In this document: piece by piece, positions 8,371-27,631 of the stretch
Numbering within the stretch: position 1 is the stretch's first letter
Layout of the letters: every line of letters begins with the position of its first letter
NCBI GenBank assembly: GCA_035307565.1
Contig: DATGHZ010000013.1
Coordinates: forward strand, 37,294 to 101,293
DNA from: a bacterium
Lineage (GTDB): Bacteria > Sysuimicrobiota > Sysuimicrobiia > Sysuimicrobiales > Segetimicrobiaceae
Direction: 5' to 3'
DNA: 64,000 bases
Translations under genes and position numbers: made by a program
Notes under the pieces: generated by a model
Seen by the model: only the letters and a program-made list of their open reading frames with translations
Databases searched by the model: none
Told to the model about the DNA's origin: nothing

Positions 8371-9525
8371 CTACGGGAGCGCGTAGAGCACGGTTTCGAT
8401 GATCCCGCCGTCGTGCTGCCGGAGAAAGAGCCGGTACCCGGACCGGATCTCCTCGACGGTCTCCGGCACACGCCACAGGTCCGACGGCCGGTGATACGTG
8501 GCGATCAGCAGCGCCGGCGCCCAGCGGCGGATCGACGCCGCCGCCCCGACGAGCGCGTCGATCTCGGCGCCCTCGATGTTCATCTTGACCACGTCGACCG
8601 GGCCTCCCTGGAGGACGTCGTCCAGCGCCGCCACGGGCACCGGCGCGCCGCCCTGATCCACCAGCCGCGCACCGCGGCTGGCGTCGCTCATAAAATGCAG
8701 CACGCCGCCCTGCCGGTGCAGTCCCATCGGGAACGCCTGCACGCGCGACTCATCCGCGAAGTTCTCGGCCAGGCGCCGGAACGTCGCCGGGTCCGGTTCG
8801 AACGCCAAGACGCGGCCGAACCGGCCGCCGGCGCGGTCGATGAACGCGCGGATCGAGTCCCCGTCGAAGGCGCCCGCGTCGACGTATACGGTCCCAGGCC
8901 CGTACGTCAGCAGACCCGCCGCGAAATAGAGGCTCTCGTCCACCACGGCCCGGAGGAGTTCCGCGTCCAGCGTGAGCCGGAAACCGAGCACCGCGTCGAG
9001 GACGGCCCGCGACCCGTCATCGTACAGGCGCGCCGCGAGGGCCGCGTAGCGCGCGCGGTGCGCGAACAAATCCTCGAGCAGTCCGGCATAGAACATGTGC
9101 GGCGGGAACCGCTCCGGCCGGAGGACCTGCAGCGCGGCGAAGGGGGCGACGTTCGCGAACCCGAGCCGCCGCGGTCCGGCCGCGGCCCGCAGGACGCGGT
9201 GCGACGCGATAACGACGGGGATCGAACGATCCAGCGCGGCGAGGCCAGCCGTGGGGACGACCGCGGCGGACGCGATCCGCATGCCCTGCTTCGCCGGGTC
9301 GTCATCGGCGACGGCGCGTACCGCGATCGCGTGCTCCTCGCATAAGGCGGCCAGGCGCCGGCCCTCCCCGGCGGCGCCGACGATAGCGAGCTCCCGGAGC
9401 CGGCCCGGCGCCAGCGTGGGATGGCGTGCCGCGAGCGCGTCCCGCATGTCCGACACGGACGCGTACCGCTGAATGGCCGGCAACCACGTCATCGTCTCGT
9501 GCGCCGTCGACGCATCGGCGTTCAT
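8371..9525 (-). CDS. FkbM-family methyltransferase with an N-terminal accessory domain
   Basis: C-terminal 384 aa of ORF 8371..10122. VYVDAGAFDGDSI...VLAFEPDP...VDVVKMNIEGAEIDAL is the FkbM (Methyltransf_21) pattern. The ATG 9525 start lies 5 nt after the upstream stop. Confidence 0.8.
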   Translation of the reverse strand: MNADASTAHETMTWLPAIQRYASVSDMRDALAARHPTLAPGRLRELAIVGAAGEGRRLAALCEEHAIAVRAVADDDPAKQGMRIASAAVVPTAGLAALDRSIPVVIASHRVLRAAAGPRRLGFANVAPFAALQVLRPERFPPHMFYAGLLEDLFAHRARYAALAARLYDDGSRAVLDAVLGFRLTLDAELLRAVVDESLYFAAGLLTYGPGTVYVDAGAFDGDSIRAFIDRAGGRFGRVLAFEPDPATFRRLAENFADESRVQAFPMGLHRQGGVLHFMSDASRGARLVDQGGAPVPVAALDDVLQGGPVDVVKMNIEGAEIDALVGAAASIRRWAPALLIATYHRPSDLWRVPETVEEIRSGYRLFLRQHDGGIIETVLYALP

Positions 9526-9530
9526 GCCGG

Positions 9531-10325
9531 CTACATCATCCGGTAGCGCTGGCCCGGCCGCGCAATGATGGCGTCGGGCCGTTCGCGCAACAGCCGCGTG
9601 ACGAACCCCACCAGGTCGCGCGCCCGAAAACCTCTGCAGATCGTGTTGTCGATCCGGGCGAGGCGAAGCCGGCCGCCGGCGGCCAGCGCATCCTGTACTT
9701 GGAAATAGTCCCGCGGCAGAAAGAGATGACGGCGCAGGAACACCCGCGTGTCGCGCCCGTGCCGGTCCCGGCACGTGTACGTCTCGCGCTCCGCAGCTGG
9801 CCGCAGGTAGAGATCCGGCGCGACCATCTCCTCCACATGGTGAATCAGCGTGCAGCAGTCCATCGTGATGCCCATCATCACGACCCAGCCGTCGTACTCG
9901 ACCAGAAGGCCGAAGGGGCTGCGGGCCGAGCACGGCGTCTCGTCGAGATGATGGAACCGCAGCAGGTCGTCGGCCAGGTCCCCGCGTGCCGCGGCGGAGT
10001 GCGTCGGATGGAGGCTGCGCCGCGTCGCGTGCTCCGTCCGGAACAGCTCGGTCAGGATCCCCACGTTGGACGGTGTCCGCAGCTCGTCGAACACCGGCGC
10101 CGCGGGCTTGACGTACCGCCACGACATCGTGGGGAGCATGAGCGTGCCGGGGCTCATGTAGTCCAGGAACGTGTCGAGCACCGCGCGGGCGTCGTGGCCC
10201 TCCTGGACCATCGTCTTGAAGGCGCTGTGCACCAGCAGGACGCCGTCCCGTGGAATGCCGAGCCGCTCGAGGGCGCGCCCGACGGCGGCGTCGTGCCGGC
10301 GCGGCCGGGCGTCACTTGTGGACAA
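9531..10325 (-). CDS. AAC(3)-family (aminoglycoside 3-N-acetyltransferase-like) acetyltransferase
   Basis: ORF 9531..10325. GVLLVHSAFKTM...TLMLPTMSW...SLHPTHSAAARG...CTLIHHVEE matches the Antibiotic_NAT family blocks. The only available start upstream of these blocks is TTG 10325, which overlaps the carbamoyltransferase stop by 14 nt. Confidence 0.7.
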   Translation of the reverse strand: MSTSDARPRRHDAAVGRALERLGIPRDGVLLVHSAFKTMVQEGHDARAVLDTFLDYMSPGTLMLPTMSWRYVKPAAPVFDELRTPSNVGILTELFRTEHATRRSLHPTHSAAARGDLADDLLRFHHLDETPCSARSPFGLLVEYDGWVVMMGITMDCCTLIHHVEEMVAPDLYLRPAAERETYTCRDRHGRDTRVFLRRHLFLPRDYFQVQDALAAGGRLRLARIDNTICRGFRARDLVGFVTRLLRERPDAIIARPGQRYRMM

Positions 10326-15582: not shown

Positions 15583-15615
15583 ATCCCGCCCCCCGGCCTC
15601 CAGGATCGGGTGCGA

Positions 15616-16155
15616 CTACTGTGGGCCCGCGCTGACCGCCAGGATCCAGTCGACCGCGGCGGGCAGAGAATCCGTCACGAAATCGGGCGCCACCGGCTTC
15701 GGCTCATGGTAGCCTCGGTCGATGAAGACCGTTCGGCAGCCCGCACGGCGGCCCGCCTCCACGTCTTTCCATCGGTCTCCCACTATGACGCTCGAGGAAA
15801 GATCAATATCGAGGCGGCGTGCCGCGGCCACTAGCAGTCCAGGTTTCGGCTTTCGGCACCCGCAATCCTCCCAATCCGAGTGAGGACACATCTCGATCGC
15901 ATGGACGGGCAGCCATTCGCGGAGTTTCCTATGCATCGCTTCTACAGCAGCGATATCCACAAGACCAAGCGCAATATCGGGCTGGTTGGTCGCCACGACG
16001 ATCAAAAATCCGGCCGCGCGGAGGGCTCGGACGGCGTCCCGAACACCGGCCAACAGACGAAAATCCTCCAACTGCCGGGGCGCGTATGCCTTGCCGTGTC
16101 GTACCGCCGTGGCCGTCAGGACGCCATCGCGATCAAGAAATACGGCCTGTCGCAT
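15616..16155 (-). CDS. gmhB: D-glycero-D-manno-heptose 1,7-bisphosphate phosphatase-like HAD-IIIA phosphatase
   Basis: ORF 15616..16188. Contains AVFLDRDGVL (the DxDGT/V nucleophile motif), VVATNQP, CxCRKPKPG and GDRWKDVEAG. I prefer ATG 16155, which is preceded by GAGGG. Confidence 0.8.
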   Translation of the reverse strand: MRQAVFLDRDGVLTATAVRHGKAYAPRQLEDFRLLAGVRDAVRALRAAGFLIVVATNQPDIALGLVDIAAVEAMHRKLREWLPVHAIEMCPHSDWEDCGCRKPKPGLLVAAARRLDIDLSSSVIVGDRWKDVEAGRRAGCRTVFIDRGYHEPKPVAPDFVTDSLPAAVDWILAVSAGPQ

Positions 16156-18121
16156 CTCGCCCTCGGGGCAACTCAGGTCGCCCCGCATTTGCCCGTGTTG
16201 ATGGATGCCGGCGACGCAGCACGTACCGTGCCGCCCAGTTCTTGATCAAACGACTTGTGGCATCCCGGTATCTCTTGTCCCGCAGCACAGCCACGATTGT
16301 CCATAGAGGATTCATGACCCCGAGTGCCGGGGAGACCCAGTCACGCTCGTCGTTCGGTCGCGACCGGCCCTGCGTCCACCCGGCTCTCTCTTTCACCCGC
16401 TGCCACAGATACCGCCGGTACCGCCAACCCCAAAATGCCACCACAATCGGCCGGCCGAACCACCGCCGGACAAGCCAGCCCTGCACGATGCCCCACGCCG
16501 CCCGCCGGTATCGTCTGTCCCGCACGATTACTGCCACGGTCCATAACGGGTTCATCAAACCCATCGTCGGTGAGACCCAGTCCCGCGCGTCGCCCAGTCG
16601 CGACCGGCCTCGCGTCCACCCCGATCTCTCTTTCACCCGCTGCCACAGATACCGCCGGTATCGCCAACCCCAGAAAGCCAGGAACATCGGCGCGAGGGTC
16701 TTACGTTGAGATAGCCATCCGCGGATAAGTCCCAACGCGGCTCGCCGATGCGGTTGATCGCGCGCGATGACTGCCATGGTCCACAACGGGTTCATCAACC
16801 CTAACGTCGGTGTTATCCAGTCCCGCGCGTCGTCGAGCCGCGAGCGACCCTTCGACCACCCTATTTTCTCCTTCGCTCGCTGCCAAAGAAAGCGGCGATA
16901 CCGGTAACACCACAGGATGTTGCGCAGCGCCGAATTCGACATGACGATGCGTGCCGTCAACCCGGGAGCGAGAAGCGCGGCTGTCACCTCGATGGCTCGC
17001 TGCTTGAGCCCGGGGGCCGCATAGACATCAGCAACCATCCTGGCCGCTCGCTGCTGGGTCCGCGTCCAGGCTGGCGATACGTCGGTGGCGTGGAAGCACA
17101 CCGGAGTCGGAAAGACCTCCCGCTTCAGCGGATCCATGACCTCGCTGTCCTTCAACTTGCGAACCAGCTGAGTCTTATACCAGTTGATGAGCCAGGCCGG
17201 CCGCTTCCCGAATTCGGGACGTAGGTCGAAATGCAAATCCGCTTCTTTAGTGAAACTCACGTACGCCACTTCATCGCTATCGGTGACGATGTATATGTCA
17301 TTCGCGTTCGGGAAATTCCGATAGACGTAATCGCCGTCCAGCGTCCAATTCTCGAACGTCGAAATGTCGTGTTTCGCGAGCGCCGCGTAGTCCATCACCA
17401 ACGGCGCCCAACTGAAGGTGTGGAAGATCAGTCCGTCTCCTCCCGGGACCTGCCAGTACGGCGAAATGGGTGATTCCGCAAACCAGGGGGCATCAAAATC
17501 GTACCGGCGCGTTTCCGAATGAAGGTGCCGCAGCACGACGCGCATCAGATCCCTCGGCCCGATCACGAGAGGCTGTCCAGGCACGAGATATCCGCGGTGC
17601 TGTAGTTCCGGGATTGCGCCTTCGTACTGAAACCGAACGGCGATGGCAAAGACCACCTTTTTGCCCGTCTCCACCAACCGTTCGAGTGCAGCAATCGAGC
17701 CGTCGGCGAACATGGCGTCGGGAGTAAGATACATCCCGTACGCGCGATCTCGGAACGCTCGGGTCGCCAACATGGCCTGACCACGCGACATCACGCTCAT
17801 TTTGCGGTCGTGGCGGTGCGCGTCCGATTCTACCTCGAGCGGCAACCACACAGGCTCGGCGTAGGCCTTGAGTCGAGTCAGCAACGGATGGCTCTGTAAG
17901 GCTTGCCAATCCTCGGCCGTCGTAGAGATTAGCACCTTGCTTCCGCGGGCCGGGTCCAGGGCGGGAATGTTTCCGGGAGCCAACAACGACGCGAGAAGGA
18001 GGTCGGTAAAGTAGGCCCGGTACACCGGCCCCCAGAATACAACCGTGAAATAAAAGGGGCGCAGCGCCGTGCCGGCAACCGGCGCCTCCAGGTCGCCGAC
18101 AGCGCCGACGCGGGGGCCCAT
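16133..18121 (-). CDS. Hypothetical protein: an unassigned ~420-aa N-terminal domain plus three tandem 80-aa Trp/Arg-rich C-terminal repeats
   Basis: ORF 16133..18154. Third codon positions are G/C-rich and the translation has ordinary (non-junk) composition. The start is ATG 18121 or TTG 18154, directly after the wzt stop. The N-terminal FYFTVVFWGPVYRAYF...LTPDAMFADGS stretch is only vaguely GT-A-like. The 3' end overlaps gmhB by 23 nt. Confidence 0.7.
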   Translation of the reverse strand: MGPRVGAVGDLEAPVAGTALRPFYFTVVFWGPVYRAYFTDLLLASLLAPGNIPALDPARGSKVLISTTAEDWQALQSHPLLTRLKAYAEPVWLPLEVESDAHRHDRKMSVMSRGQAMLATRAFRDRAYGMYLTPDAMFADGSIAALERLVETGKKVVFAIAVRFQYEGAIPELQHRGYLVPGQPLVIGPRDLMRVVLRHLHSETRRYDFDAPWFAESPISPYWQVPGGDGLIFHTFSWAPLVMDYAALAKHDISTFENWTLDGDYVYRNFPNANDIYIVTDSDEVAYVSFTKEADLHFDLRPEFGKRPAWLINWYKTQLVRKLKDSEVMDPLKREVFPTPVCFHATDVSPAWTRTQQRAARMVADVYAAPGLKQRAIEVTAALLAPGLTARIVMSNSALRNILWCYRYRRFLWQRAKEKIGWSKGRSRLDDARDWITPTLGLMNPLWTMAVIARDQPHRRAALGLIRGWLSQRKTLAPMFLAFWGWRYRRYLWQRVKERSGWTRGRSRLGDARDWVSPTMGLMNPLWTVAVIVRDRRYRRAAWGIVQGWLVRRWFGRPIVVAFWGWRYRRYLWQRVKERAGWTQGRSRPNDERDWVSPALGVMNPLWTIVAVLRDKRYRDATSRLIKNWAARYVLRRRHPSTRANAGRPELPRGRDATGRIS
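16193..16912 (-). repeat. Three in-frame tandem repeats of 240 nt (80 aa) inside the 16133-18121 CDS
   Basis: The units start at 16912, 16672 and 16432 on the minus strand. The consensus is W-x-x-RYRR(Y/F)LWQR(V/A)KE(R/K)xGWxxGRSRxxDxRDW(V/I)(S/T)PxxGxMNPLWT. Positions 16385-16440 and 16625-16680 differ at only 3 of 56 nt. Confidence 0.9.
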
Positions 18122-18154
18122 CTCTACGCGTGATCGCCGGGGCGGCGGATCCAA

Positions 18155-18955
18155 CTACGGGCCCCCAGCCACTGCTTCCGCCAGCGAAGGCTGCGGCTGT
18201 TCCGGCGGGGTCTCACGCATTTTGCGATACACTTCACTTACCTCATGGAGGTCGCCCAGCATCACGACGCGCCCGCTGTCGAGGAGCAGCGCTTTGGTGC
18301 ACATCGACTGGATGATGGCGTCCGAGTGAGAGGCCAACACAAGGATGTTTGCACGCGCAAGCAACGCATCAACTCGCTTGGCCGCTCGCTCCGCGAACCG
18401 CGCGTCGCCGGCGCCGATTCCCTCGTCGAGCAGCAGTATCTCGGGATCAATGGCGGTGGCAACAGCGAAACATAGCCGGGAGAGCATGCCCGAGGAGTAG
18501 GTCCTGACCGGCAGCGACAGGTAATCGCCAAGTTCGGAGAATGCCGCGATGTCGTCGATCTTGACGCGAATCTCGTCCCGGTGCATACCAAGAAATAGAC
18601 CGCACGTGATGATGTTCTCGTATCCCGTATCATCCATGTCGAGGCCGGGGGCAATGTTGAACAGCGGCGAAACGCGGCCCTCGATCGCAACGCGGCCCGC
18701 GACCGGCTGATAGACGCCAGCGAGAACCCGCAGCAGCGTGGATTTACCGGCGCCGTTGTACCCAAGGATTCCGACGCGATCGCCGTGATCGATTCTAAGC
18801 GAGACGTTCTCGAGGGCGCGGATGGTCACGCGATTGTGGCGGCCCTCACGCCGGATCAATCCTCCAACGCGCGCCGCCAGTTCCTTACGGAACATCTTTT
18901 GCGACCCGTAGACCGGAAAGCTAACCGTGACGTTCTCAACCGCAACGGACGCCAT
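18155..18955 (-). CDS. wzt: Polysaccharide ABC exporter ATP-binding protein (NBD only, no C-terminal carbohydrate-binding domain)
   Basis: ORF 18155..19054 trimmed to ATG 18955 (AGGAG upstream). Contains Walker A GYNGAGKSTLL, the signature YSSGMLSRL, Walker B ILLLDE and the H-loop ASHS. It is 266 aa long. Confidence 0.85.
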   Translation of the reverse strand: MASVAVENVTVSFPVYGSQKMFRKELAARVGGLIRREGRHNRVTIRALENVSLRIDHGDRVGILGYNGAGKSTLLRVLAGVYQPVAGRVAIEGRVSPLFNIAPGLDMDDTGYENIITCGLFLGMHRDEIRVKIDDIAAFSELGDYLSLPVRTYSSGMLSRLCFAVATAIDPEILLLDEGIGAGDARFAERAAKRVDALLARANILVLASHSDAIIQSMCTKALLLDSGRVVMLGDLHEVSEVYRKMRETPPEQPQPSLAEAVAGGP

Positions 18956-18968
18956 AGAAAGATCGCTC

Positions 18969-19832
18969 CTACATCCAATACGCCAGCCGCCGGCGAAAAC
19001 GGCTGTAGGTCCACAGAGTGACGGCCCAGCCGACAACCGTGGCCAGTAGCACAAATTCGTACGTCAAACGGGACGGGAGCTTTCCGAGGAGAGGCGATCG
19101 GATCACATCGACGTAATGAAAGAGCGGGTTGCCGTTGGCAAAGTACTTTGTCATTTTCGGACCCAACTGTTCGGGCGTAAAGAAGATTGGCGTTACGAAC
19201 ATGGAGATCTGGAGAATGCTCATCACAACCTGTTGGACGTCCCGGTAGCGCGTGCATACCATCCCCAGCATCATGGCGAACCAGATGCCGTTGATCCAGA
19301 CCAAGAGTATGCCCGGAATTGTGAGAAACATCGCCACTTTGGGGTGAAGCCCCGCGAATATAGCGACGCCGATGAAAATCACGAAGTTGTGAAAGAACAC
19401 GATCAGATTCCGCCAGACGACCGTGCAGGCCAGGAGCGAGTATGGGAAACGCAGTTGCTTGATGAGGCTCTCCCCAGACAGAAACGTCTGGCAGCCCTCG
19501 CTGATGACCGCGGCGACCAGGTTCCAGGCGAGCAAGCCGGTGGTAAGAAACGGCAGGTAAACCTTAGGGTCTTGATGCCAAAGATTCGCCCAGACGAGAC
19601 CCAGTGCGAGCATAAAGATGCCAAGGCTTAACGTATTCCAGAATGGGCCAATCGCGGTTCGGCGGTAGCGCCGCTTAATCTCTTGCCAGCCCAGCCGCCC
19701 CCACATCCGCCAGTCGGACAGCCCTGTGATAATATCCAGCGCCGCGATATCGTACTGGGCAGCCGCCGCGACGTATCTTACGGTTGTTCGTCCCGCGCTC
19801 GGATGTTGCACTTCCGTCCGCTCCGATATCAT
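18969..19832 (-). CDS. wzm: ABC-2 type polysaccharide exporter permease
   Basis: ORF 18969..19919. RRYRRTAIGPFWNTLSL is followed by about 6 hydrophobic segments, the typical Wzm/KpsM/TagG pattern. I prefer ATG 19832 because ATG 19919 would overlap the divergent GT4 start. Confidence 0.8.
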   Translation of the reverse strand: MISERTEVQHPSAGRTTVRYVAAAAQYDIAALDIITGLSDWRMWGRLGWQEIKRRYRRTAIGPFWNTLSLGIFMLALGLVWANLWHQDPKVYLPFLTTGLLAWNLVAAVISEGCQTFLSGESLIKQLRFPYSLLACTVVWRNLIVFFHNFVIFIGVAIFAGLHPKVAMFLTIPGILLVWINGIWFAMMLGMVCTRYRDVQQVVMSILQISMFVTPIFFTPEQLGPKMTKYFANGNPLFHYVDVIRSPLLGKLPSRLTYEFVLLATVVGWAVTLWTYSRFRRRLAYWM

Positions 19833-19912
19833 TGGCCTGCAATGTACGATAACGCTTCGAGGCTCTCCTCCGCCCGAGGCGGTGTCACGATCGAAGACCG
19901 TGCACAGGGGAA

Positions 19913-21097
19913 ATGACATTGGCGCATGACGTGACCGAATCGATCCGAATTGCCCGCGTGATCACCCGTCTTAATATCGGCGGACCTTCCCGCCATGTGA
20001 TGACTCTGACGAGTGCGCTGAACGACGGCCGTTTCCGAAGCCGATTGATTTGCGGTATTCCAACGCCGAACGAGGGCGATTTGACCGCCGAAGCCAGAGC
20101 CGGCGGCTATCCCCTTGTCCAGATCCGGGCCCTGCGGAACGACGCCGGATTGATCGCCGCGCTCGCGACCATGCAGACATTGTACCGCGAATTCCGAACG
20201 ATGCGACCCCACATCGTGCACCTCCATCAGTTCAAAGCACGGTTCTTGGGCGCGCTTGCCGCGCGCGCGGCAGGCGTCCCCCATGTCGTGCAGACGTATC
20301 ACGGCACTTTGCTGCAAGGATACTTTCTCCCGCCACTCGCGACGGCGGTTACGCTCTTGGAGCGGCTTCTGGGACGCTGGCTAGTGCATCATACCATCGC
20401 CATCAGTCCGGAGGTTTGCCGGCAACTAGTCGAGCGCGGGATGGTAGATCCCCACCGTATCACAGTCATTCGCTTGGGGTTGTCACTGACTCCCCTTCTT
20501 ACGCCGCCTGAATCGGGTGACGCCTTCCGGCGCGAGATCGACATTCCGACGGACGCACTGCTCATTGGATTCGTCGGCCGGCTGGCGCCCATCAAGGGCG
20601 CCGATCTTTTTCTGGAGGCCGCCGAGGAGTTGATCCGTACGATGGAGCGCCCGGTATATGCCGTGATCGTCGGCGATGGACCAGAGCGGCAGCACCTGGA
20701 AGCGCAGGCACGGCGGGCTGCGATCGACAGTCGAATCATTTTTACCGGGTGGCGGCGAGATCTTCGGGCGGTCTACTGGGGCATCGATGTGCTGGCCGTG
20801 ACGTCTCGAAGCGAAGGAACGCCGGTCGTTGCCATGGAGGCGATGGCCGCGCGGCGCGCGGTTGTGGCGACTCGTGTGGGTGGAATTCCGGACATCATTC
20901 AGGACGGACGCACCGGTTTGCTCATCGAACCCGGCAACCCGCAGCGGCTCGCGGCGGCTCTTCAGCAAGTACTGGAGGATGTGGCGCTGCGGCAGAGGCT
21001 GGGGTTGGCCGCGCAGCAGTCGGTTTATCCGGCCTACGACGAGACAACGCTGTGCAGGGCGATGCGGGAATATTACGCACGGCTACTCGAAGGGTGA
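19913..21097 (+). CDS. Glycosyltransferase family 4 (GT-B, RfaB-like)
   Basis: ORF 19913..21097, with AGGGGA upstream of the ATG. GFVGRLAPIKG...SRSEGTPVVAMEAMAARRAVVATRVGGIPDII is the EX7E-type GT4 C-terminal motif. Confidence 0.85.
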   Translation: MTLAHDVTESIRIARVITRLNIGGPSRHVMTLTSALNDGRFRSRLICGIPTPNEGDLTAEARAGGYPLVQIRALRNDAGLIAALATMQTLYREFRTMRPHIVHLHQFKARFLGALAARAAGVPHVVQTYHGTLLQGYFLPPLATAVTLLERLLGRWLVHHTIAISPEVCRQLVERGMVDPHRITVIRLGLSLTPLLTPPESGDAFRREIDIPTDALLIGFVGRLAPIKGADLFLEAAEELIRTMERPVYAVIVGDGPERQHLEAQARRAAIDSRIIFTGWRRDLRAVYWGIDVLAVTSRSEGTPVVAMEAMAARRAVVATRVGGIPDIIQDGRTGLLIEPGNPQRLAAALQQVLEDVALRQRLGLAAQQSVYPAYDETTLCRAMREYYARLLEG

Positions 21098-22759
21098 TGC
21101 ATGGCGACGGCGCCACCGGTGCCACGGTCTGACAAGCAGCGCGCGAAGCACTCCTTGGCGCACGATCATGTCTTTCACGAGTCCGACCGCCGCGTCTCTT
21201 TGTCGTTTGTCTCGCAACACCATCTTTAGCGTCCAGAGGGGATTCATCAGCCCCAACGCCGGCGAGACCCAGTCGCGGCCGTCATCCAGCCGTGCCCCGC
21301 CCTTCACGATGCCCAGCCGCTCCTTGGCCTTGTGCCACAGATACCGCCGGCACTGCAAGCACCAGTGCACCCGGCCCGGCAGAGTCCAGGGTCCCACACG
21401 GGCCACGAGTTGCCGCGCATTTGCTTGCGAAAGCGCATTCCGAGTGCGTCTGAAAGCACCCCAGTCTGCGGCGCCGTCCGTCCATTTCACCCCTCGCCGG
21501 TCCAGGACAACCTCCGCCATCATACGCGCGTAGGCCCGGTGCCCGCGCGCGCTCCACTTTTCCACCATCTGAGGGAATTGGTACCAGGAGCGCAACTCCT
21601 CGTCTGTGGTGCCGGCGGGAATGCGCCCGCGCATGTCGAGGACTCTGATGTGGGGCGCCTGCGCCACCATCGCGTCCGTGAACTCGAAAGGCTGGTTCAA
21701 CTCGTAGTAATGGAAATTGTGGGTGATGACAAGATTGGGTACGGTTTCGGCCAGCCACCCGAAGTGGACGATGCCGAACTCGATCATCCGCGGGCGATCC
21801 AGCCTCGGGTCACTCATCGGGGCTTGAACGTCGAAATCCCGTACCCGACTGACATCGATATTTACCGGCTTTCCGGTCAACATGCGAAGGGTCAAGGCTC
21901 CGAACCGAGGCATCACCCCCTCGACCATGTCATCGACGACCTGACGCTGGAGCATCCGGACGCGCCGCGCGTCCTTGACGAAGCTCCGGGATGCCTGGAA
22001 CCCGTACGGACGGGCCGGAATCACCTTCGGATGACGAAAGGATGTGGCCATAAAGCCTTGGACAATCGCCGGCGCCGCGGCTGCGACATCATCTAGGCCG
22101 GGGCCAACTCGATACTCAACGAGGACATTCGCGACCGGATGACCCTGATACCGCAGTGGCGCCCCAACGAGCGGGCGGTAAAAGTCGGTCTCGACATAGT
22201 TGACAATGGTGAGATCGGGGGAGAACTTATGTCCTTCGTTCTGCCACGCCTTGACGTAGTGCTCGGGGCCCGCGTCCGGCCATGCCAGATTAAACACCCG
22301 ATACCGTACTGACGTGTCCCGTCGGTTCAGCTCCTCTTCTAGCAAATCCGGCCAGCTCTGGTCTGACACCGACGACGCGCTCTGCTCACCGCCAATAATG
22401 ACAATGCGGAACTCTCCCGCCTCTCGCTCATAGCTGTAGTCGCGATGGGAGATGAAGCCGAGATTGTTGGTCCGTATATCAGCGGCCGCGATGCACTCCG
22501 CATCATAACCGTACATCCGATATGCCAATGTCGTATTGGGACATCGCTGGGTGGCATTGTATGGGTCGCCCGTACTCAATGCGCCGGAATGCAAGATCAC
22601 CGGCCAGAGTGCGCTGTTACTCTTGTTGGCGTCCCGAACGTACCTCCGCAGCCACCATTCCAATGCTATCACGGCCGCCGCGGCGCACGCGGCGTCAATA
22701 AGAGCCCTTACCAAGGGGACGGCCGGAACTCGTGAGTGAACGGCCGGTGCAGTTGACAC
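21083..22759 (-). CDS. Hypothetical membrane-anchored protein whose C-terminus carries one copy of the 80-aa Trp/Arg-rich module
   Basis: ORF 21083..22759 (GTG start). It has an N-terminal hydrophobic helix (LIDAACAAAAVIALEWWL). FRIVIIGGEQSAS and ARGHRAYARMMAEVV give only a weak SGNH/GDSL-like impression. The C-terminus WCLQCRRYLWHKAKERLG...RDWVSPALGLMNPLWT matches the 16193-16912 repeats. Confidence 0.65.
   Translation of the reverse strand: MSTAPAVHSRVPAVPLVRALIDAACAAAAVIALEWWLRRYVRDANKSNSALWPVILHSGALSTGDPYNATQRCPNTTLAYRMYGYDAECIAAADIRTNNLGFISHRDYSYEREAGEFRIVIIGGEQSASSVSDQSWPDLLEEELNRRDTSVRYRVFNLAWPDAGPEHYVKAWQNEGHKFSPDLTIVNYVETDFYRPLVGAPLRYQGHPVANVLVEYRVGPGLDDVAAAAPAIVQGFMATSFRHPKVIPARPYGFQASRSFVKDARRVRMLQRQVVDDMVEGVMPRFGALTLRMLTGKPVNIDVSRVRDFDVQAPMSDPRLDRPRMIEFGIVHFGWLAETVPNLVITHNFHYYELNQPFEFTDAMVAQAPHIRVLDMRGRIPAGTTDEELRSWYQFPQMVEKWSARGHRAYARMMAEVVLDRRGVKWTDGAADWGAFRRTRNALSQANARQLVARVGPWTLPGRVHWCLQCRRYLWHKAKERLGIVKGGARLDDGRDWVSPALGLMNPLWTLKMVLRDKRQRDAAVGLVKDMIVRQGVLRALLVRPWHRWRRRHASPFE
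21086..21364 (-). repeat. Single dispersed copy of the 80-aa module found in triplicate at 16193-16912
   Basis: Protein-level identity to the repeats is about 60% over the first 50 aa. At the DNA level, gccacagataccgccgg is shared with 16402-16418. Confidence 0.8.
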
Positions 22760-23004
22760 ATTATTCCAACTCCGTTTCGCGCGCTTCTCGGCGCGGGTAT
22801 TTACACTTCACATTAAAAATATGGTCGTTCGCACCGATCGTCAATTCCCCCCTCTCGATCCTGCTACGACCGTAATTCCCGACCAGTGCGCGTGCCTACT
22901 CAATTGTCGATTACGATTTCGAGACCATCAAAAGCCTGCCGCCGCCGTCGGGCGCGCAAGACGAAGCGTCCCAAAAGTGTGGAGCGAACCTGCGGAAAGG
23001 GCGA

Positions 23005-24297
23005 TCACGTACGCGGCCGGGACATGATCATGCCAAAGAAAAAACTAAACAAAATGGCGCCTTCCTCGGTCACGACAGCAGGATGCAGCACATTCAGCAC
23101 CGCCAGCGCGGTGAGACCGGTCACCGCGATCTTGAATCGCGGCCACGGGCGGGAACCGGCGATCTCGCGCAGCCGCTGAAACCCGGTGACCAACGGCATG
23201 ACCACGATCCACGTGTACAACGCAAGCCCCACCACCCCGGTCTTGACCAGCAAGAATCCATATCCCGTCGACATATACCGCCACGGGCCGCCCGGACCAT
23301 TGTCGGGCGGCGCGGTGGCGGTGACGCCTCCGAGTCCGACGCCGAAGAGTGGATCGTGAAGAAACCGTGGAATCCCACTCTGAAATTCGGAAATTCGCTG
23401 AAGCATCGAGCCGTCCGTCGCAGCCCGAGACCAATGTCCCATCATCTGCTTTATTGGAGCGACGATCCAGGACGGGCCGGGGAGAACACCTGCGCCATAG
23501 CCGTACACGGCGGTGAGGACCACCGCGAGGAGCGCCGCGCGGAGCGCGACCGCCCCGCCGGACGGAACAAACGTCAGCACGAGAACCGACAGGCCCAATG
23601 CGAGGCCCTCCGCCGTGCGCTCCTGCATCGCGATGATGTACCAAATGAGGACGGGCAGCGCGGCGGCCCACGCGAGCCGCGCCACCGGCGTCTCGTCGGC
23701 GAGCGCGCCGCCGAGCGCCACGGTGAACGCCACGACCGGCACCGACCACTCCAAGTACCGGGCGACGAACGGCGCCACCGGCCGGTTGCCGGGCAGCTCG
23801 ATGACGCCGGACAACTGCAAAAAGACGGCCACGGCCGCAACACACGTGAAGAAAACATATACGCCCGCCAGTCGCCGAAAATCATTGCCGCGGAATCCCG
23901 CACAAGTGTACGCTAGCGCGAGCAGGTAGAAGGACAAGGGCCGGAGTTCCCGCACGGCGAGAAACGTTCCGCCGGGATCACGCAGGCCAGCGACAAATGG
24001 AACGGCCATATACGCCACGAATGCCCCCACCCACAGAAGTTCACGTCGTCCCTGATAAACCGCGCGCACGATGAGCGGCGCCGCCGTCAGCACCGCGGCG
24101 GCGGCGAGCGCATCCTCTAGGTTGATCTTCGCGCCCTGAAGGCTCAGCAACGGATACACGCGTAGCGTATATCCTGGTACCATCGCCGCGACGGCGGTGA
24201 TCGCGTAGAGGAAACAGCGGGGTATGGCCGCGGCGGCGCTTCGCCACTGTGGGTGAATCGCCGGGTGCTCAGCGGGGTCGATCGTGGAGTGTAGCAC
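23005..24297 (-). CDS. Multi-pass membrane protein, O-antigen ligase/polymerase (Wzy_C)-like
   Basis: ORF 23005..24297, 430 aa. It has at least 10 hydrophobic segments and a central loop (MQERTAEGLALG...) in the position of the Wzy_C domain. This is a pattern-level call only. Confidence 0.55.
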   Translation of the reverse strand: MLHSTIDPAEHPAIHPQWRSAAAAIPRCFLYAITAVAAMVPGYTLRVYPLLSLQGAKINLEDALAAAAVLTAAPLIVRAVYQGRRELLWVGAFVAYMAVPFVAGLRDPGGTFLAVRELRPLSFYLLALAYTCAGFRGNDFRRLAGVYVFFTCVAAVAVFLQLSGVIELPGNRPVAPFVARYLEWSVPVVAFTVALGGALADETPVARLAWAAALPVLIWYIIAMQERTAEGLALGLSVLVLTFVPSGGAVALRAALLAVVLTAVYGYGAGVLPGPSWIVAPIKQMMGHWSRAATDGSMLQRISEFQSGIPRFLHDPLFGVGLGGVTATAPPDNGPGGPWRYMSTGYGFLLVKTGVVGLALYTWIVVMPLVTGFQRLREIAGSRPWPRFKIAVTGLTALAVLNVLHPAVVTEEGAILFSFFFGMIMSRPRT

Positions 24298-24487
24298 TGC
24301 CGCGGGCGTTACGGTCTCCGTCGTGGGTCGATACCGAAACGTCGAACCCGCCGTTACTACGGTGCACGGCCGGTCGAACCCTTTCGGAGGGACTCAGGCC
24401 GGTGTCACGAATGTAAGAGGCGTTCCACACGACCGGGGCGGAGGCCGTCGACTACCCGCCAACAATGCCATCCCACAGCGAGTCCGC

Positions 24488-25822
24488 ATGACGCTGGAGC
24501 ACTTGGCGAAAGCGGGCGCCGCACTGTCTGCGTCCATCACCTCCAAGACGGCGACCGTAGGGATCATCGGTCTCGGCTACGTCGGACTGCCGCTCGCGGT
24601 CGAATTCGCGCGCGCCGGCTTTCCGGTCGTCGGCATCGATGTCGACCGCACCCGCGTCCACGATCTCAACGCGGGCCGGTCCTATATTCCCGACGTCCCA
24701 ACTGAGACGGTAGCGGACCTGGTCGCACGGGGCCGGCTGCGGGCGGCGTTCGACTTCGACATCCTCCGCGAGATCGACGCGGTCATCATCTGCGTCCAAA
24801 CTCCGCTCACGTCGACGAAAGAACCCGATCTGACCTACGTCACCGCCTCGCTGCAGGAAGTGCGGCGGTATCTGCATCCGGGCCAGTTAGTCGTCCTGCA
24901 AAGCACGACCTATCCGGGCACAACCGAGGAAGTCGCCCTACCGCTTCTGGCCGGATCTGGTCTCACGGTCGGAAGAGACTTCTTTCTCGCCTTTTCGCCG
25001 GAGCGCGTGGACCCCGGCAACACGCGGTACGCCACGCGGGACATTCCGAAGGTGGTCGGTGGCATTACGCCGGTGTGCGGGCTCCTCGGTCAGGCGCTCC
25101 TCGAACATGTCGTTCCGAATGTGCACCGAGTGTCCTCCGCACGAGCCGCCGAAACCACCAAACTCCTTGAGAACGTCTATCGAAGCGTCAACATCGCGTT
25201 GGCCAACGAACTGGCGATACTGTGCCGGCGCATGGACGTCAATATCTGGGAAGTCATCGACGCGGCGGCGACCAAACCGTTCGGCTTCGCAGCGTTCTAC
25301 CCCGGACCCGGCGTGGGCGGTCACTGTATTCCGGTGGATCCGCACTACCTTACGTGGAAGGCACGAGCGTACGAATTCAACACCCGCCTGACCGCCGCCG
25401 CGACGGAAGTCAACGAAGAGATGCCGCGTCACGTTGCGGAGATGGTGCGGGACACCGTCAACATGCGGCTCCGGAAGAGCATCGCGGGCGCGCGCATTCT
25501 CGCGCTCGGCGTGGCCTATAAGACGGGCGTCCCGGACCCGCGGGAGTCGCCAGCCGTCAAGGTACTTGCGTTGCTGGCGAACTGGGGCGCGTCTGTTGCG
25601 TACCACGACGCGATGGTCCCCCGCGTGCTGGTGGACGGCCGCGAGTACGAATCTGTCCCCCTCAGCGCCGACGCGCTCAAGGGTGCCGACTGCGTCGTGA
25701 TTCTGACCGAGCACCGAGGGATCGACTACGGGTGGGTGGTCGAGCACGCGAAGTGCATCTTCGACACCCGCAACGCCACGCGGAGCGTCCCTGATCCCGA
25801 CCGTAAGGTTGCACGACTGTAG
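24488..25822 (+). CDS. UDP-N-acetyl-D-mannosamine/glucosamine dehydrogenase-like nucleotide-sugar dehydrogenase (WecC/Cap5O type)
   Basis: ORF 24284..25822 trimmed to ATG 24488. Contains VGIIGLGYVGLPLAVEFA, PERVDPGN, GGHCIPVDP (the catalytic Cys) and GVAYKTGVPDPRESPA. Confidence 0.85.
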   Translation: MTLEHLAKAGAALSASITSKTATVGIIGLGYVGLPLAVEFARAGFPVVGIDVDRTRVHDLNAGRSYIPDVPTETVADLVARGRLRAAFDFDILREIDAVIICVQTPLTSTKEPDLTYVTASLQEVRRYLHPGQLVVLQSTTYPGTTEEVALPLLAGSGLTVGRDFFLAFSPERVDPGNTRYATRDIPKVVGGITPVCGLLGQALLEHVVPNVHRVSSARAAETTKLLENVYRSVNIALANELAILCRRMDVNIWEVIDAAATKPFGFAAFYPGPGVGGHCIPVDPHYLTWKARAYEFNTRLTAAATEVNEEMPRHVAEMVRDTVNMRLRKSIAGARILALGVAYKTGVPDPRESPAVKVLALLANWGASVAYHDAMVPRVLVDGREYESVPLSADALKGADCVVILTEHRGIDYGWVVEHAKCIFDTRNATRSVPDPDRKVARL

Positions 25823-25837: not shown

Positions 25838-27631
25838 GTGAGCGCGGCACGAATCATCGCCGAGCCGTTTGCGTATAGCCTAGTGGGCGCGGTCCTCTTG
25901 ACGGGTGGCCTGCGCGCTTTTCTCCTGTACGTCGGGCTGATCGATCGTCCCACCGCCGACCGCTGGCACCGGCGGCCCGTCGCGCGCCCCGGGGGCCCGG
26001 CCATCGTTGCCGTGGTGCTGGCAGGCATCGCGCTCTTCTTCCCCGGCCCCATGAGCGGCACGATGCGGGGATGGCTCGCCGGCGGCGTCTTCATTTTCAT
26101 CGTCGGCCTAGTCGACGATTTGACGGCCGGCCTGCAGAGCCCGCTCAAGCTGACGCTCCTGATCATCGGCGCGGCGATTCCCGTGTTGTTCGGCGTGACC
26201 GTGAAGGCACTGCCGCCCGTGCTCGGCACGCCGATTGCGATGTTGTGGATCCTCGGACTCACCAATGCCGTCAATTGGCTCGACAACATGGACGGCCTCG
26301 CCGCCGGCGTCAGCGCGATTGCGGCCGGCACCTTGGTGGTCCTGTCATTCGCTTTTCACGACGGGGCTACGGCGGTGACCGCGTCGCTCGTCGCAGGCGC
26401 CTGCGTCGGGTTCCTGTTCTTCAATTTCAGCCCGGCGAGCATTTTCATGGGCGATTCGGCGAGCGGATTTTTGGGGCTCACACTCGCCGTCCTAGCCCTC
26501 TCCGGTCCGGCCGGGCATGTGTCCGGGCTCTTCCTGGCGCTCGTCGTCCCCGTCCTGATTCTCAGTATTCCGATTTTCGATACCGCCGTGGTGACGATAT
26601 CACGGGTGTGGAGCGGACGGCCGCTATTTCAGGGCGGCACAGACCATCCCTCGCACCGCCTGGTAGTCCTTGGGCTGACCGAACGGCAGACCGTCCTGCT
26701 GCTGTGGGCCTTGAGCGCGTTGTCGGCTTCCGCCGCCGTGCTGGCGTCACGGCTCGGTCCGGCGGCCGGCCTCGTGTTTGCCGGCGTGTTCGTCTGCGTC
26801 TTTACCGCGCTGGGATTAACAGTGGCCAGGGTCCGCGTCTACGAGGTGGCGGCGCTCCCCCTCGGAACCGCCCGGGTCGTGTTGGCCCAGATGCTTCACA
26901 AGCGTTCGCTGCTCGCGATCGTGCTCGACTTCATTTTGATCTGCGTGGCTTACATCAGCGCGGCACTGCTGCGTTTCGAAGGGACCATCCCCGCCGCCTA
27001 CGTTCCGATTGTCGTCCAATCGCTGCCGGTCGTCCTCGCCGTCAAACTGACCCTGTTCTACCGTATGGGTCTGTACCGTACGAAGTGGCGCTACGTCGGC
27101 CTGCTCGATCTCCTCACATTCCTGCGTGCGTCGCTGCTAGCCTCGCTCGTTTGCGTCGGGGTGCTCTTTCTCGTCGCGGGGCTCAGAGGCTTTTCCCGCG
27201 CCGTCCTCGTGCTCGATTGGATCCTCACGTTCGGCCTGCTGGGCGGAATGCGGCTCTCGCTGCGAGTTCTCGAGGAGTACTTTATCAGTCTGCGAACACG
27301 GGGAAAGCGCGTTCTAATTTTCGGCGCCGGCCGGGGCGGCGTGCTTCTGCTTCACGAACTGCGGAGCAACCCGTCGCTCGCCTGCAGCCCAGTCGGCTTC
27401 GTGGACGATGATGCCTTCAAGCAGGGCGACATCGTACGGGGACTGCCAGTGCTCGGCACCGGCCGGGACATCCCCGCCCTGGCCGCTGAGCACCGGATCC
27501 AAGAGGTCCTGGTTGCGGTGCCGTCGCTGAGCACGGAGGCGGTCGACCGGATTGCCCTCATGTGCGGCGAGGCCGGGATCTCGTGGCGCGTCGTGCGTCC
27601 TCTGCTCGAACCGGCGCCGCAGGACGTATAA
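25838..27631 (+). CDS. Polyprenyl-phosphate HexNAc-1-phosphate transferase (MraY/WecA family) fused to extra TM helices and a CoA_binding_3-like Rossmann domain
   Basis: ORF 25838..27631 (GTG start). NAVNWLDNMDGLAAG and FFNFSPASIFMGDSASGFLG are PNPT motifs. The C-terminal RVLIFGAGRGG...PVGFVDDD...GLPVLGT...IQEVLVAVPS resembles the pre-catalytic domain of WbaP/CapD-type proteins. Confidence 0.8.
   Translation: MSAARIIAEPFAYSLVGAVLLTGGLRAFLLYVGLIDRPTADRWHRRPVARPGGPAIVAVVLAGIALFFPGPMSGTMRGWLAGGVFIFIVGLVDDLTAGLQSPLKLTLLIIGAAIPVLFGVTVKALPPVLGTPIAMLWILGLTNAVNWLDNMDGLAAGVSAIAAGTLVVLSFAFHDGATAVTASLVAGACVGFLFFNFSPASIFMGDSASGFLGLTLAVLALSGPAGHVSGLFLALVVPVLILSIPIFDTAVVTISRVWSGRPLFQGGTDHPSHRLVVLGLTERQTVLLLWALSALSASAAVLASRLGPAAGLVFAGVFVCVFTALGLTVARVRVYEVAALPLGTARVVLAQMLHKRSLLAIVLDFILICVAYISAALLRFEGTIPAAYVPIVVQSLPVVLAVKLTLFYRMGLYRTKWRYVGLLDLLTFLRASLLASLVCVGVLFLVAGLRGFSRAVLVLDWILTFGLLGGMRLSLRVLEEYFISLRTRGKRVLIFGAGRGGVLLLHELRSNPSLACSPVGFVDDDAFKQGDIVRGLPVLGTGRDIPALAAEHRIQEVLVAVPSLSTEAVDRIALMCGEAGISWRVVRPLLEPAPQDV

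Follow-up and report, generated by a model that had tools for sequence, protein, structure and literature searches.

A tryptophan- and arginine-rich C-terminal module on glycan-assembly enzymes of a Wzm/Wzt-type cluster: a candidate multivalent membrane anchor

Introduction

What is the role of a tandemly repeated, strongly basic and tryptophan-rich tail on an enzyme encoded directly beside the exporter genes of a glycan cluster? This question is raised by a gene on the minus strand (16133..18121) of the DNA stretch analyzed here, which comprises 64,000 nucleotides (nt) of contig DATGHZ010000013.1 from the metagenome-assembled genome (MAG) GCA_035307565.1 and is hereafter referred to as the window. 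The deduced product of 662 amino acids (aa), as obtained from the open reading frame (ORF) and its translation, consists of a domain of the GT-A glycosyltransferase fold followed by three C-terminal copies of a tryptophan- and arginine-rich module. It is proposed, with a probability of about 0.5, that this module represents a multivalent peripheral anchor which may hold glycan-assembly enzymes on the membrane's cytoplasmic side, where membrane binding and topology are inferred from sequence features, structure models and analogy to characterized systems. No precedent was found in the databases and literature searched for the sequence family itself, for its three-part architecture and tandem multiplicity or for its linkage to two enzyme families that lack names.

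Results and Discussion

The C-terminal array and its conserved unit

The 662-aa product corresponds exactly to the NCBI entry HLW47012.1 (protein P0001 in this study; locus tag VKW09_04515, 'MAG TPA: hypothetical protein', bacterium), and the identical sequence was recorded from the NCBI MAG and from a JGI/ENA assembly, i.e., from two contigs. A first-pass annotation of the window, made from the letters alone, had described three in-frame tandem copies of 240 nt covering 16193-16912. These copies were confirmed by translation of the ORF and by Tandem Repeats Finder, which reported a period of 240 at 16328-16903 (2.4 copies, 76% matches, score 602). On the minus strand, unit 1 (16673..16912, aa 404-483) comprises a 50-aa core (16763-16912) and a subsequent 30-aa helical extension, unit 2 spans 16433..16672 (aa 484-563; core 16523-16672) and unit 3 spans 16193..16432 (aa 564-643; core 16283-16432). 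Matches of these units to a profile of homologous modules reached 86, 78.8 and 78 bits, respectively (E 1e-23 to 1e-25). Pairwise identity between the units amounts to 46-62% (aa) over 80 aa and to 60-74% (aa) or 67-79% (nt) over the first 50 aa. The array is connected to the GT-A domain by a moderately hydrophobic helical linker (16913..17011, minus strand, aa 371-403; helices 372-384, 386-391 and 397-407 in the AlphaFold2 (AF2) model), and unit 3 is followed by a basic 19-aa tail (16136-16192, minus strand) which overlaps the start of the next gene. The end of this tail, ...RGRDATGRIS, has a counterpart, ...RGRDATGRFS, in the closest relative, P0002.

The 80-aa period taken as the unit in the first-pass annotation holds within the window, but it is not the conserved module. 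Across relatives, the module is about 50 aa long and successive copies are 47, 51 or 54 aa apart; a distance of 80 aa is limited to the window, and in P0002 it is 79 aa. The period of the window is composed of the 50-aa core and a lineage-specific basic helix of 30 aa (AF2 helix 456-487). The core follows the consensus WxWRYRRFxWxRxKEKxGxx...W..P......P.W[ST]. Among 67 aligned modules, W1, R6, R7, W32 and P35 are invariant, and Y5, W10, E15, G18 and P42 are conserved in at least 90% of the sequences (P42 in 98%). Three parts can be distinguished, namely a cationic and aromatic segment (WxWRYRRFxWxRxKEKxG, approximately +5), a polar loop of 13 residues and a proline-kinked hydrophobic segment (WxxPxxxLxxPxW[ST]). 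Moreover, two subfamilies are separated by their loops, GRSRxDDGRDW, including the modules of the window, and EERHFDWxxGGW in Nitrospirales.

Averaged over the 67 modules, columns 1-18 carry a net charge of +4.7 and show a Wimley-White interfacial sum of -2.2 kcal/mol, the polar columns 19-31 give +4.6 kcal/mol, and the uncharged columns 32-50 with their two conserved prolines give -4.1 kcal/mol. The hydrophobic segment of about 19 residues has a mean Kyte-Doolittle (KD) value of 0.70, and Ser or Thr occupies column 34 in approximately 41% of the modules. The repeat region as a whole has a net charge of +39, with 9.2% Trp and 19.2% Arg, compared to -1, 2.5% and 7.4%, respectively, for the catalytic domain. 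No transmembrane (TM) helix was found in the 662-aa protein: the maximum Kyte-Doolittle mean over 19 residues (KD19) is 1.49, it lies within the linker (aa 371-403), and it stays under the TM threshold. Insertion as a TM hairpin was considered and rejected, since no 19-residue window reaches a KD of 1.6 and charged residues interrupt the hydrophobic stretches ahead of the modules. The description of the basic segment as amphipathic-looking is only loosely right, its Eisenberg moment being low (0.27-0.30); the Wimley-White moment, averaged by column, amounts to 0.11 at 100 degrees and peaks at 140-160 degrees. The low helical moment is explained by aromatic and basic residues all round the helix.

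In the AF2 model, the repeats are built of a helix (core residues ~2-17), a coil of 24 residues and a second helix at pLDDT values (predicted local distance difference test) of 53-89; for unit 1 these elements correspond to helix 409-420, coil 421-444, helix 445-454 and the extension helix 456-487. A single module modelled with the 67-sequence alignment (pLDDT 58.9; helix 2-16, coil, helix 42-49) is not confidently globular, and Foldseek returned no PDB match for it, although at this model confidence any match would be unreliable. The whole protein matched no Pfam or NCBIfam family. Its C-terminal 259 aa produced only noise (Rad4 with E 0.12; cytochrome bd subunit II with 17 bits against a cut-off of 681), and the 67 single modules produced only four weak Cytochrom_B559 matches (best E 0.037). 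The PDB sequence search yielded nothing, and the literature on the WRYRR motif and on Trp/Arg-rich repeats on glycosyltransferases contained nothing relevant. The initial impression that the unit belongs to no known domain family is borne out by these searches.

The module is carried by two unrelated enzyme families

The N-terminal catalytic domain of the 662-aa protein (17012..18064, minus strand, approximately aa 20-370) was assigned to the GT-A fold by AF2 and Foldseek. The AF2 model, calculated from a 101-sequence alignment, has a mean pLDDT of 82.7 overall and of ~95-99 in the catalytic domain (about 98 over aa 23-370). Foldseek hits in the PDB comprised GnT-I (1fo8), SpsA (1h7l), TarP (6h21), RmlT (8bz8) and ppGalNAc-T2, with E-values of 3e-5 to 2e-4, a probability of 1.00 and identities of 10-12%. 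Since neither Pfam nor NCBIfam contains a model matching this domain, it is referred to as an unclassified GT-A-like family, and the structure model makes it a candidate new glycosyltransferase family. Positions P134, D135, D140 and G141, located after the strand 128-132, and D281-S282-D283 are each conserved in at least 90% of the 101 aligned sequences, the acidic residues among them being candidates for a DxD-type motif.

Nitrospirales clusters encode three to six GT-A paralogues, and modules are present only on the one adjacent to wzt (on two in locus L003). At the position of the module, the module-less paralogues possess basic tails of 60-150 aa (13-24% R+K), several of which contain TM-like helices with KD19 values of 1.9-2.2 (P0075, P0090, P0110). 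These basic or TM-like tails suggest that the C-terminal position is used for membrane association throughout the family. Paralogues of the GT-A family were also noticed in loci L001, L004, L005, L007, L018, L032, L041 and L050, some of them fused to SPRY domains (PF00622).

Scanning all six frames of the window with the profile identified exactly one further copy of the module, located at 21215-21364. The corresponding gene (21083..22759, minus strand) encodes 558 aa from a GTG start, while the NCBI entry HLW47016.1 (exactly matching P0127) lists 526 aa. Its single C-terminal module has the core WCLQCRRYLWHKAKERLGIVKGGARLDDGRDWVSPALGLMNPLWTLKMVL (21215..21364, minus strand, aa 466-515; 78 bits, E 3.9e-23), which is 61-67% identical (nt) to the three cores of the glycosyltransferase, and the extension following the core resembles that of unit 3. 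The N-terminal domain of this second carrier is unrelated to GT-A and weakly SGNH/GDSL-like, its family showing sub-threshold matches to GDSL, NonGDSL and DUF6473. The first-pass annotation had placed the module correctly on the 662-aa product, but it is not confined to that product. Within the family of the second carrier, 24 of 25 relatives lack the module. Another SGNH-like member, P0124, features an N-terminal hydrophobic helix and two modules; it is encoded at 10001-11908 of L061 (GCA_030157225.1, contig JASDBA010000253.1), in the MAG that also includes L003 and in a separate glycan cluster, which contains GT2 genes and genes for four paralogous proteins of 640-670 aa of unknown function. 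No wzm or wzt gene was found within 10 kb of P0124. Occurrence on two unrelated catalytic domains characterizes the module as a portable unit that has been joined to two different enzymes.

Distribution and copy number

In order to evaluate how widespread the module is, the 50-aa profile was used for an exhaustive HMMER search of 1.84 billion representative proteins, which was preferred over a word-indexed search with the same profile that had yielded five candidates. Eleven matches were obtained at E <=1e-3, nine of them at E <=1e-10; they represent GT-A-family proteins or fragments, two SGNH-like proteins, two short fragments and one probable false positive (P0129). By this measure the module is very rare. 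Furthermore, DNA collections were scanned with a degenerate core pattern which covers 49 of the 67 known modules and of whose matches approximately half are due to chance, so that they were filtered by the profile. Among one genome for each of 185,579 GTDB species, a set which does not include the source genome of the window, 24 places were found and five were validated, all in Nitrospirales, Nitrospira or Nitrospiraceae MAGs. The JGI metagenome collection contributed 30 places, 15 of them validated and each located downstream of a GT-A-family domain where sequence was available.

Among 153 fetched proteins, 101 contain no full module, 27 contain one, 18 contain two, five contain three and two contain four; P0012 has four full copies and a partial fifth. 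Close relatives of the window protein differ accordingly: those of L035, L056 and L057 (59% identity in the catalytic domain) have one copy, P0002 (67% identity) has two and the window protein has three. Variation of copy number among relatives, from 0 to 5, could thereby be established.

Conserved linkage to wzm and wzt

Directly upstream of the module gene, wzt (18155..18955, minus strand; PF00005, 7e-20) encodes an ABC ATPase consisting of the nucleotide-binding domain only, without the C-terminal carbohydrate-binding domain, and wzm (18969..19919, minus strand; PF01061, 5e-18) encodes an ABC-2 type permease. With adjacent permease and ATPase genes, glycosyltransferases and sugar-nucleotide genes, the cluster is of the ABC-transporter-dependent (Wzm/Wzt), O-antigen type of glycan assembly, and the same gene set recurs in Nitrospirales and in other metagenomic loci. 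The contiguous order wzm-wzt-[module-bearing GT-A gene] was found in the window and in L001, L003, L006, L007, L017, L018, L021, L024, L035, L046, L053/L058, L056, L057 and L059, which makes 15 independent loci; in L005 and L060 it is nearly contiguous. No wzm or wzt gene was found in the available flanks of L004, L050 and L055, which also encode module-bearing glycosyltransferases. The expectation that module carriers adjoin wzm/wzt is supported by this conserved gene order.

A putative multivalent membrane anchor

In ABC-transporter-dependent pathways, the glycan acceptor is lipid-linked at the inner membrane (PMC11231755). The GT-A fold in combination with an O-antigen-type cluster (wzm, wzt and genes for WecA-like, Wzy_C/ligase-like and LptD_N-like proteins) leads to the same expectation for the acceptor of the window enzyme, and use of a nucleotide sugar on a lipid-linked acceptor implies that a GT-A enzyme must work at the cytoplasmic face (PMC11231755). 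According to the proposed model, the cationic and aromatic segment 1 would reside in the lipid head-group interface, bound to anionic phospholipids, and segment 3 would enter the cytoplasmic leaflet to a shallow depth. Avidity would be gained from tandem copies, three in the window and one to five in relatives. In this way the module may tether enzymes without TM helices, i.e., the GT-A glycosyltransferase and, in the cluster of the window, also the SGNH-like enzyme, at the membrane site where the undecaprenyl-linked acceptor and the Wzm/Wzt exporter are located.

Among the roles offered by the first-pass annotation, membrane docking is the one best supported, by the lack of a TM helix, the charge of +39, the Trp content of 9% and the basic or TM-like tails of the paralogues, although it is still inferred. 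Occurrence in one to five copies, at spacings of 47-80 aa and on two catalytic domains, fits binding to a surface by avidity better than a one-to-one protein contact. Moreover, P0124 with its two modules and no transporter gene nearby indicates that the module is not strictly dependent on an adjacent transporter. A low-confidence stand-alone fold without structural neighbours, as predicted here, is typically seen with segments whose folding takes place on a membrane or on a partner.

The predicted function is probably of a known sort, namely that of the membrane-association tails of peripheral glycan-assembly enzymes, and the arrangement found here, a C-terminal basic and non-polar segment on an enzyme lacking TM helices, is that of KpsC and WbdD. 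KpsC, the beta-Kdo transferase of capsule synthesis, has a basic and non-polar C-terminal helix whose removal renders the enzyme soluble (PMC10148158). [quoted passage not shown] However, the anchor of KpsC is one helix joined to a GT107-type enzyme, whereas the module is a three-part unit of 50 aa, present in one to five copies on a GT-A enzyme; no sequence similarity to KpsC was detected in family scans and the PDB sequence search. [quoted passage not shown] It likewise has a membrane-proximal C-terminal region that anchors and can organize enzymes in a wzm/wzt-linked O-antigen system, and the carrier described here is encoded next to wzt and accompanied by paralogues without modules. In contrast, WbdD, a terminator of the kinase/methyltransferase type, has a long ruler made of coiled coil, whereas the module protein possesses an N-terminal GT-A domain and a tandem-repeat anchor, but neither coiled coil nor terminator domain.

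Further similarities are more distant. The re-entrant membrane helix of PglC features a basic dyad (Lys-Arg) and a Ser-Pro break (PMC6133551), to which R6-R7 and the proline-broken hydrophobic segment (W32-x-[T/S/A]-P35 ... P42) of the module can be compared, both being located on glycan-assembly enzymes of the cytoplasmic face. Despite the invariant R6-R7 and P35, the module does not conform to a re-entrant helix of the PglC type: the PglC helix is N-terminal, single, part of the catalytic fold and made of ~30 continuous hydrophobic residues, whereas the hydrophobic segment of the module is shorter (~19 residues, mean KD 0.70), C-terminal and repeated, with Ser/Thr before P35 in only ~41%. 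Trp/Arg-rich antimicrobial peptides such as indolicidin, tritrpticin and those of the lactoferricin type form cation-pi pairs and partition into the head groups of anionic bilayers. The module resembles these peptides in composition (~9% Trp and 19% Arg, denser in the first 18 residues) and in the physical chemistry this implies, but they are short, secreted and act from outside, while the module, with its fixed architecture and conserved loop, is the tail of an intracellular enzyme. The GW modules of Listeria InlB and Ami were also considered as ~80-aa tandem C-terminal repeats with Gly-Trp that provide non-covalent attachment to an anionic envelope polymer (lipoteichoic acid). Assignment to the GW/SH3b type was rejected, since GW modules are extracellular, of SH3-like beta structure and represented by Pfam models, whereas the 50-aa unit has no Pfam match, is predicted to be helical, lacks a signal peptide and belongs to a protein with a cytoplasmic, nucleotide-sugar-dependent fold.

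Several observations weigh against membrane anchoring. Segment 1, with a helical hydrophobic moment that is not high, deviates from a classical amphipathic helix. The polar loop is strongly conserved within each subfamily, more than generic lipid binding needs, which hints at a specific ligand or partner. Furthermore, in clusters with three to six GT-A paralogues the restriction of the module to those adjacent to wzt also fits a transporter coupling or a scaffold. Finally, the AF2 confidence for the repeats (pLDDT 53-89) is moderate.

Alternative roles

The strongest competing explanation, though unlikely in itself, is that the module serves as a protein-protein docking or scaffold element which couples the glycosyltransferase, and through it the module-less paralogues, to Wzm/Wzt or to other cluster proteins, comparable to the recruitment of WbdA by the membrane-proximal region of WbdD. 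The contiguous gene order in the window and the loci listed above, the limitation of modules to wzt-adjacent paralogues in multi-paralogue clusters and the loop conservation within each subfamily are all consistent with docking; moreover, with a Wzt reduced to its nucleotide-binding domain, hand-over of the substrate would need another contact. On the other hand, arrays of up to four or five copies at variable spacing are unusual for a stoichiometric site on Wzm2Wzt2, the sequenced flanks of L004, L050 and L055 and the 10 kb around P0124 are free of wzm/wzt, and the extreme cationic and aromatic composition is typical of interfacial binding.

Binding of an anionic polysaccharide or of the undecaprenyl-pyrophosphate head group is more doubtful still. 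As a multivalent tail, the array would hold the growing chain and influence processivity or chain length. Trp and Tyr combined with Arg, Asp and Asn are the residues by which sugars and anions are classically bound, the module has W1, R6, R7 and W32 as invariant positions, and the gene of the UDP-glucose/GDP-mannose dehydrogenase family in the cluster suggests a polymer containing uronic acid and thus of anionic character; in addition, removal of the basic C-terminal helix of KpsC alters the product length distribution in vitro (PMC10148158). However, the module shows no likeness to families of carbohydrate-binding modules in Pfam or the PDB. Known members of these families are rich in beta structure and fold by themselves, whereas a helix-coil-helix of low stand-alone confidence is predicted here, and it is not obvious what the uncharged hydrophobic third with its proline kinks would contribute to the binding of a hydrophilic polymer.

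A broader speculation, to be held with similar reserve, assigns the module to a glycan-export machine not described before, which would be present in Nitrospirales and related uncultured lineages and in whose assembly the module would have a dedicated role. The copies carried by GT-A and SGNH-like enzymes would share one binding partner (Wzm/Wzt, the copies themselves or the undecaprenyl-pyrophosphate-linked polymer), the carrier adjacent to wzt would nucleate a multi-enzyme complex of the new glycosyltransferase family, and the copy number would tune stoichiometry or processivity.

A function of the array as molecular ruler or spacer that sets the glycan chain length, as known for the coiled coils of WbdD and WbbB, is very improbable and was rejected. 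In its favor, ABC-transporter-dependent O-antigen systems characteristically employ rulers (PMC11231755), relatives differ in copy number (0 to 5), and in the model of the window protein the 30-aa extension is a long helix (456-487) that continues into the next unit. Nevertheless, each unit contains a non-helical loop of 24 residues and two invariant or near-invariant prolines, which precludes a continuous coiled coil; most relatives have compact units of 47-54 aa lacking the long helix; and the repeats form the C-terminus, with no terminating enzyme domain distal to them. The arrangement of helix, 24-residue coil and helix with nothing beyond it thus departs from that of the coiled-coil rulers WbdD, WbbB, ORF7-O4 and ORF6-O7, and the earlier suggestion of length measurement gains no support from units of helix, loop and helix with two conserved prolines.

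Relevance of the module

Membrane holding of soluble glycosyltransferases and their coupling to Wzm/Wzt are known for only a handful of enterobacterial models. The module represents a candidate anchor that is defined by sequence, portable and variable in copy number, and it occurs in uncultured, environmentally important lineages including the nitrite-oxidizing Nitrospirales. Its analysis also draws attention to two enzyme families unnamed in current databases, one of the GT-A fold with three to six paralogues per cluster and one SGNH-like. If anchoring proves true, the 50-aa unit could be used as a compact membrane-targeting tag, its removal would be an obvious route to soluble enzyme, and a new domain family entry would be justified. 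If docking to the transporter proves true instead, the module would provide a direct handle on the coupling of polymerization and export.

Integrity and history of the array

That the repeat is an artefact, either of mis-assembly or of a non-coding repeat read as protein, was rejected as extremely improbable: although the sequence originates from a MAG and a patch of 56 nt is nearly identical in two units, the longest exact repeat within the array measures 36 nt (offset 240), the units otherwise diverge by 21-46% (nt), the 662-aa product was recorded from two assemblies, and one to five modules are present in more than 50 homologues encoded in independent metagenomes. The 36-nt maximum and the recovery from two assemblies make mis-assembly very unlikely. 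Furthermore, third codon positions account for a disproportionate share of the differences between units, and the GC content at these positions (GC3) is 0.70-0.73 on the minus strand compared to 0.63 for the overlapping plus-strand ORF; this bias and the minus-strand GC3 indicate that the repeat is coding, translated and under constraint. The plus-strand ORF in question (15819-16709) was rejected as a true gene, its GC3 of 0.63 being without coding bias and homologues existing only for the minus-strand product.

The near-identical patch (16385..16440 versus 16625-16680, minus strand) spans the junctions of units 1/2 and 2/3, is read as a tract of recent gene conversion or recombination and differs at exactly 3 of 56 nt, as had been counted in the first-pass annotation; its figure of about 80% identity between units 2 and 3 over the first 50 aa was close, the measured values being slightly lower (74% aa, 79% nt). 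Unit 2 is a mosaic, with its 5' 60 nt like unit 3 and its 3' part nearer to unit 1. In consecutive 30-nt bins, it differs from unit 3 at 1, 2, 7, 8, 13, 11, 17 and 20 positions and from unit 1 at 9, 8, 8, 6, 4, 11, 15 and 14 positions. Over codons -3 to +20, units 2 and 3 are identical at 18 of 23 codons and synonymous at three, compared to six of 23 identical codons for units 1 and 2, which supports the recent duplication or gene conversion between units 2 and 3 that had been suspected. A single unequal crossover as the origin of the whole array was rejected, since unit 2 shows 37 differing codons out of 57 in the comparison of its 3' part with unit 1, but only five out of 23 in that of its 5' part with unit 3. 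As judged from these patterns, the array would be better explained by triplication at an earlier time and a conversion tract that formed recently across the unit junctions. The first unit and the C-terminal tail of P0002 are orthologous to those of the window protein, and the older expansion may have started from a two-unit state as present in P0002, which would fit the comparison.

Further genes and observations of the window

Divergently from wzm, a gene for a GT4-family glycosyltransferase is located at 19913..21097 on the plus strand (PF13692 and PF00534, 1e-39 to 1e-40), an arrangement also present in L006 and L059. It is followed by the SGNH-like second carrier described above, by genes for a Wzy_C/ligase-like protein (23005-24297, minus strand), a member of the UDP-glucose/GDP-mannose dehydrogenase family (24284-25822, plus strand) and a WecA-like transferase (25838-27631, plus strand; PF00953 fused to CoA_binding_3, PF13727) and, further away, by a gene for an LptD_N-like protein as diderm marker (31892-33433, plus strand). 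CoA_binding_3 usually accompanies proteins of the WbaP/PglF type, and against this background its fusion to a WecA-like domain looks unusual.

On the other side, the downstream gene (15616..16188, minus strand; PF13242 and PF00702) encodes a GmhB-like phosphatase of the HAD family, and the region 6.3-16.2 kb includes, besides this gene, those for a carbamoyltransferase, an Antibiotic_NAT acetyltransferase, an FkbM methyltransferase, epimerases/dehydratases and a transaldolase-like protein. The order GT-A ... GmhB ... transaldolase-like recurs in L035, L056 and L057. The 3' end of the module gene (16133-16188) shares 56 nt with the start of the GmhB-like ORF (23 nt when this ORF is taken to begin at its second Met), which suggests translational coupling or a later start.

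The region 15600-23000 forms a compositional island with a GC content of 0.60-0.63 and a GC3 of 0.70-0.74, compared to a GC3 of 0.86-0.90 in the flanking sugar-modification genes. Six genes make up the island, namely the two module carriers (GT-A and SGNH-like), wzt, wzm and the gmhB-like and GT4 genes. The island may represent a horizontally replaced core of the cluster. Within positions 1-64000, neither a tRNA or tmRNA gene nor an Rfam family at the gathering threshold was detected. Moreover, the FkbM ORF (8371-10122, minus strand) overlaps the Antibiotic_NAT gene (9531-10325, minus strand) by ~590 nt in another frame. In tblastn searches, the first 197 residues of the FkbM ORF merely shadow conserved NAT DNA in other loci, and the true FkbM start probably lies near residue 186-200.

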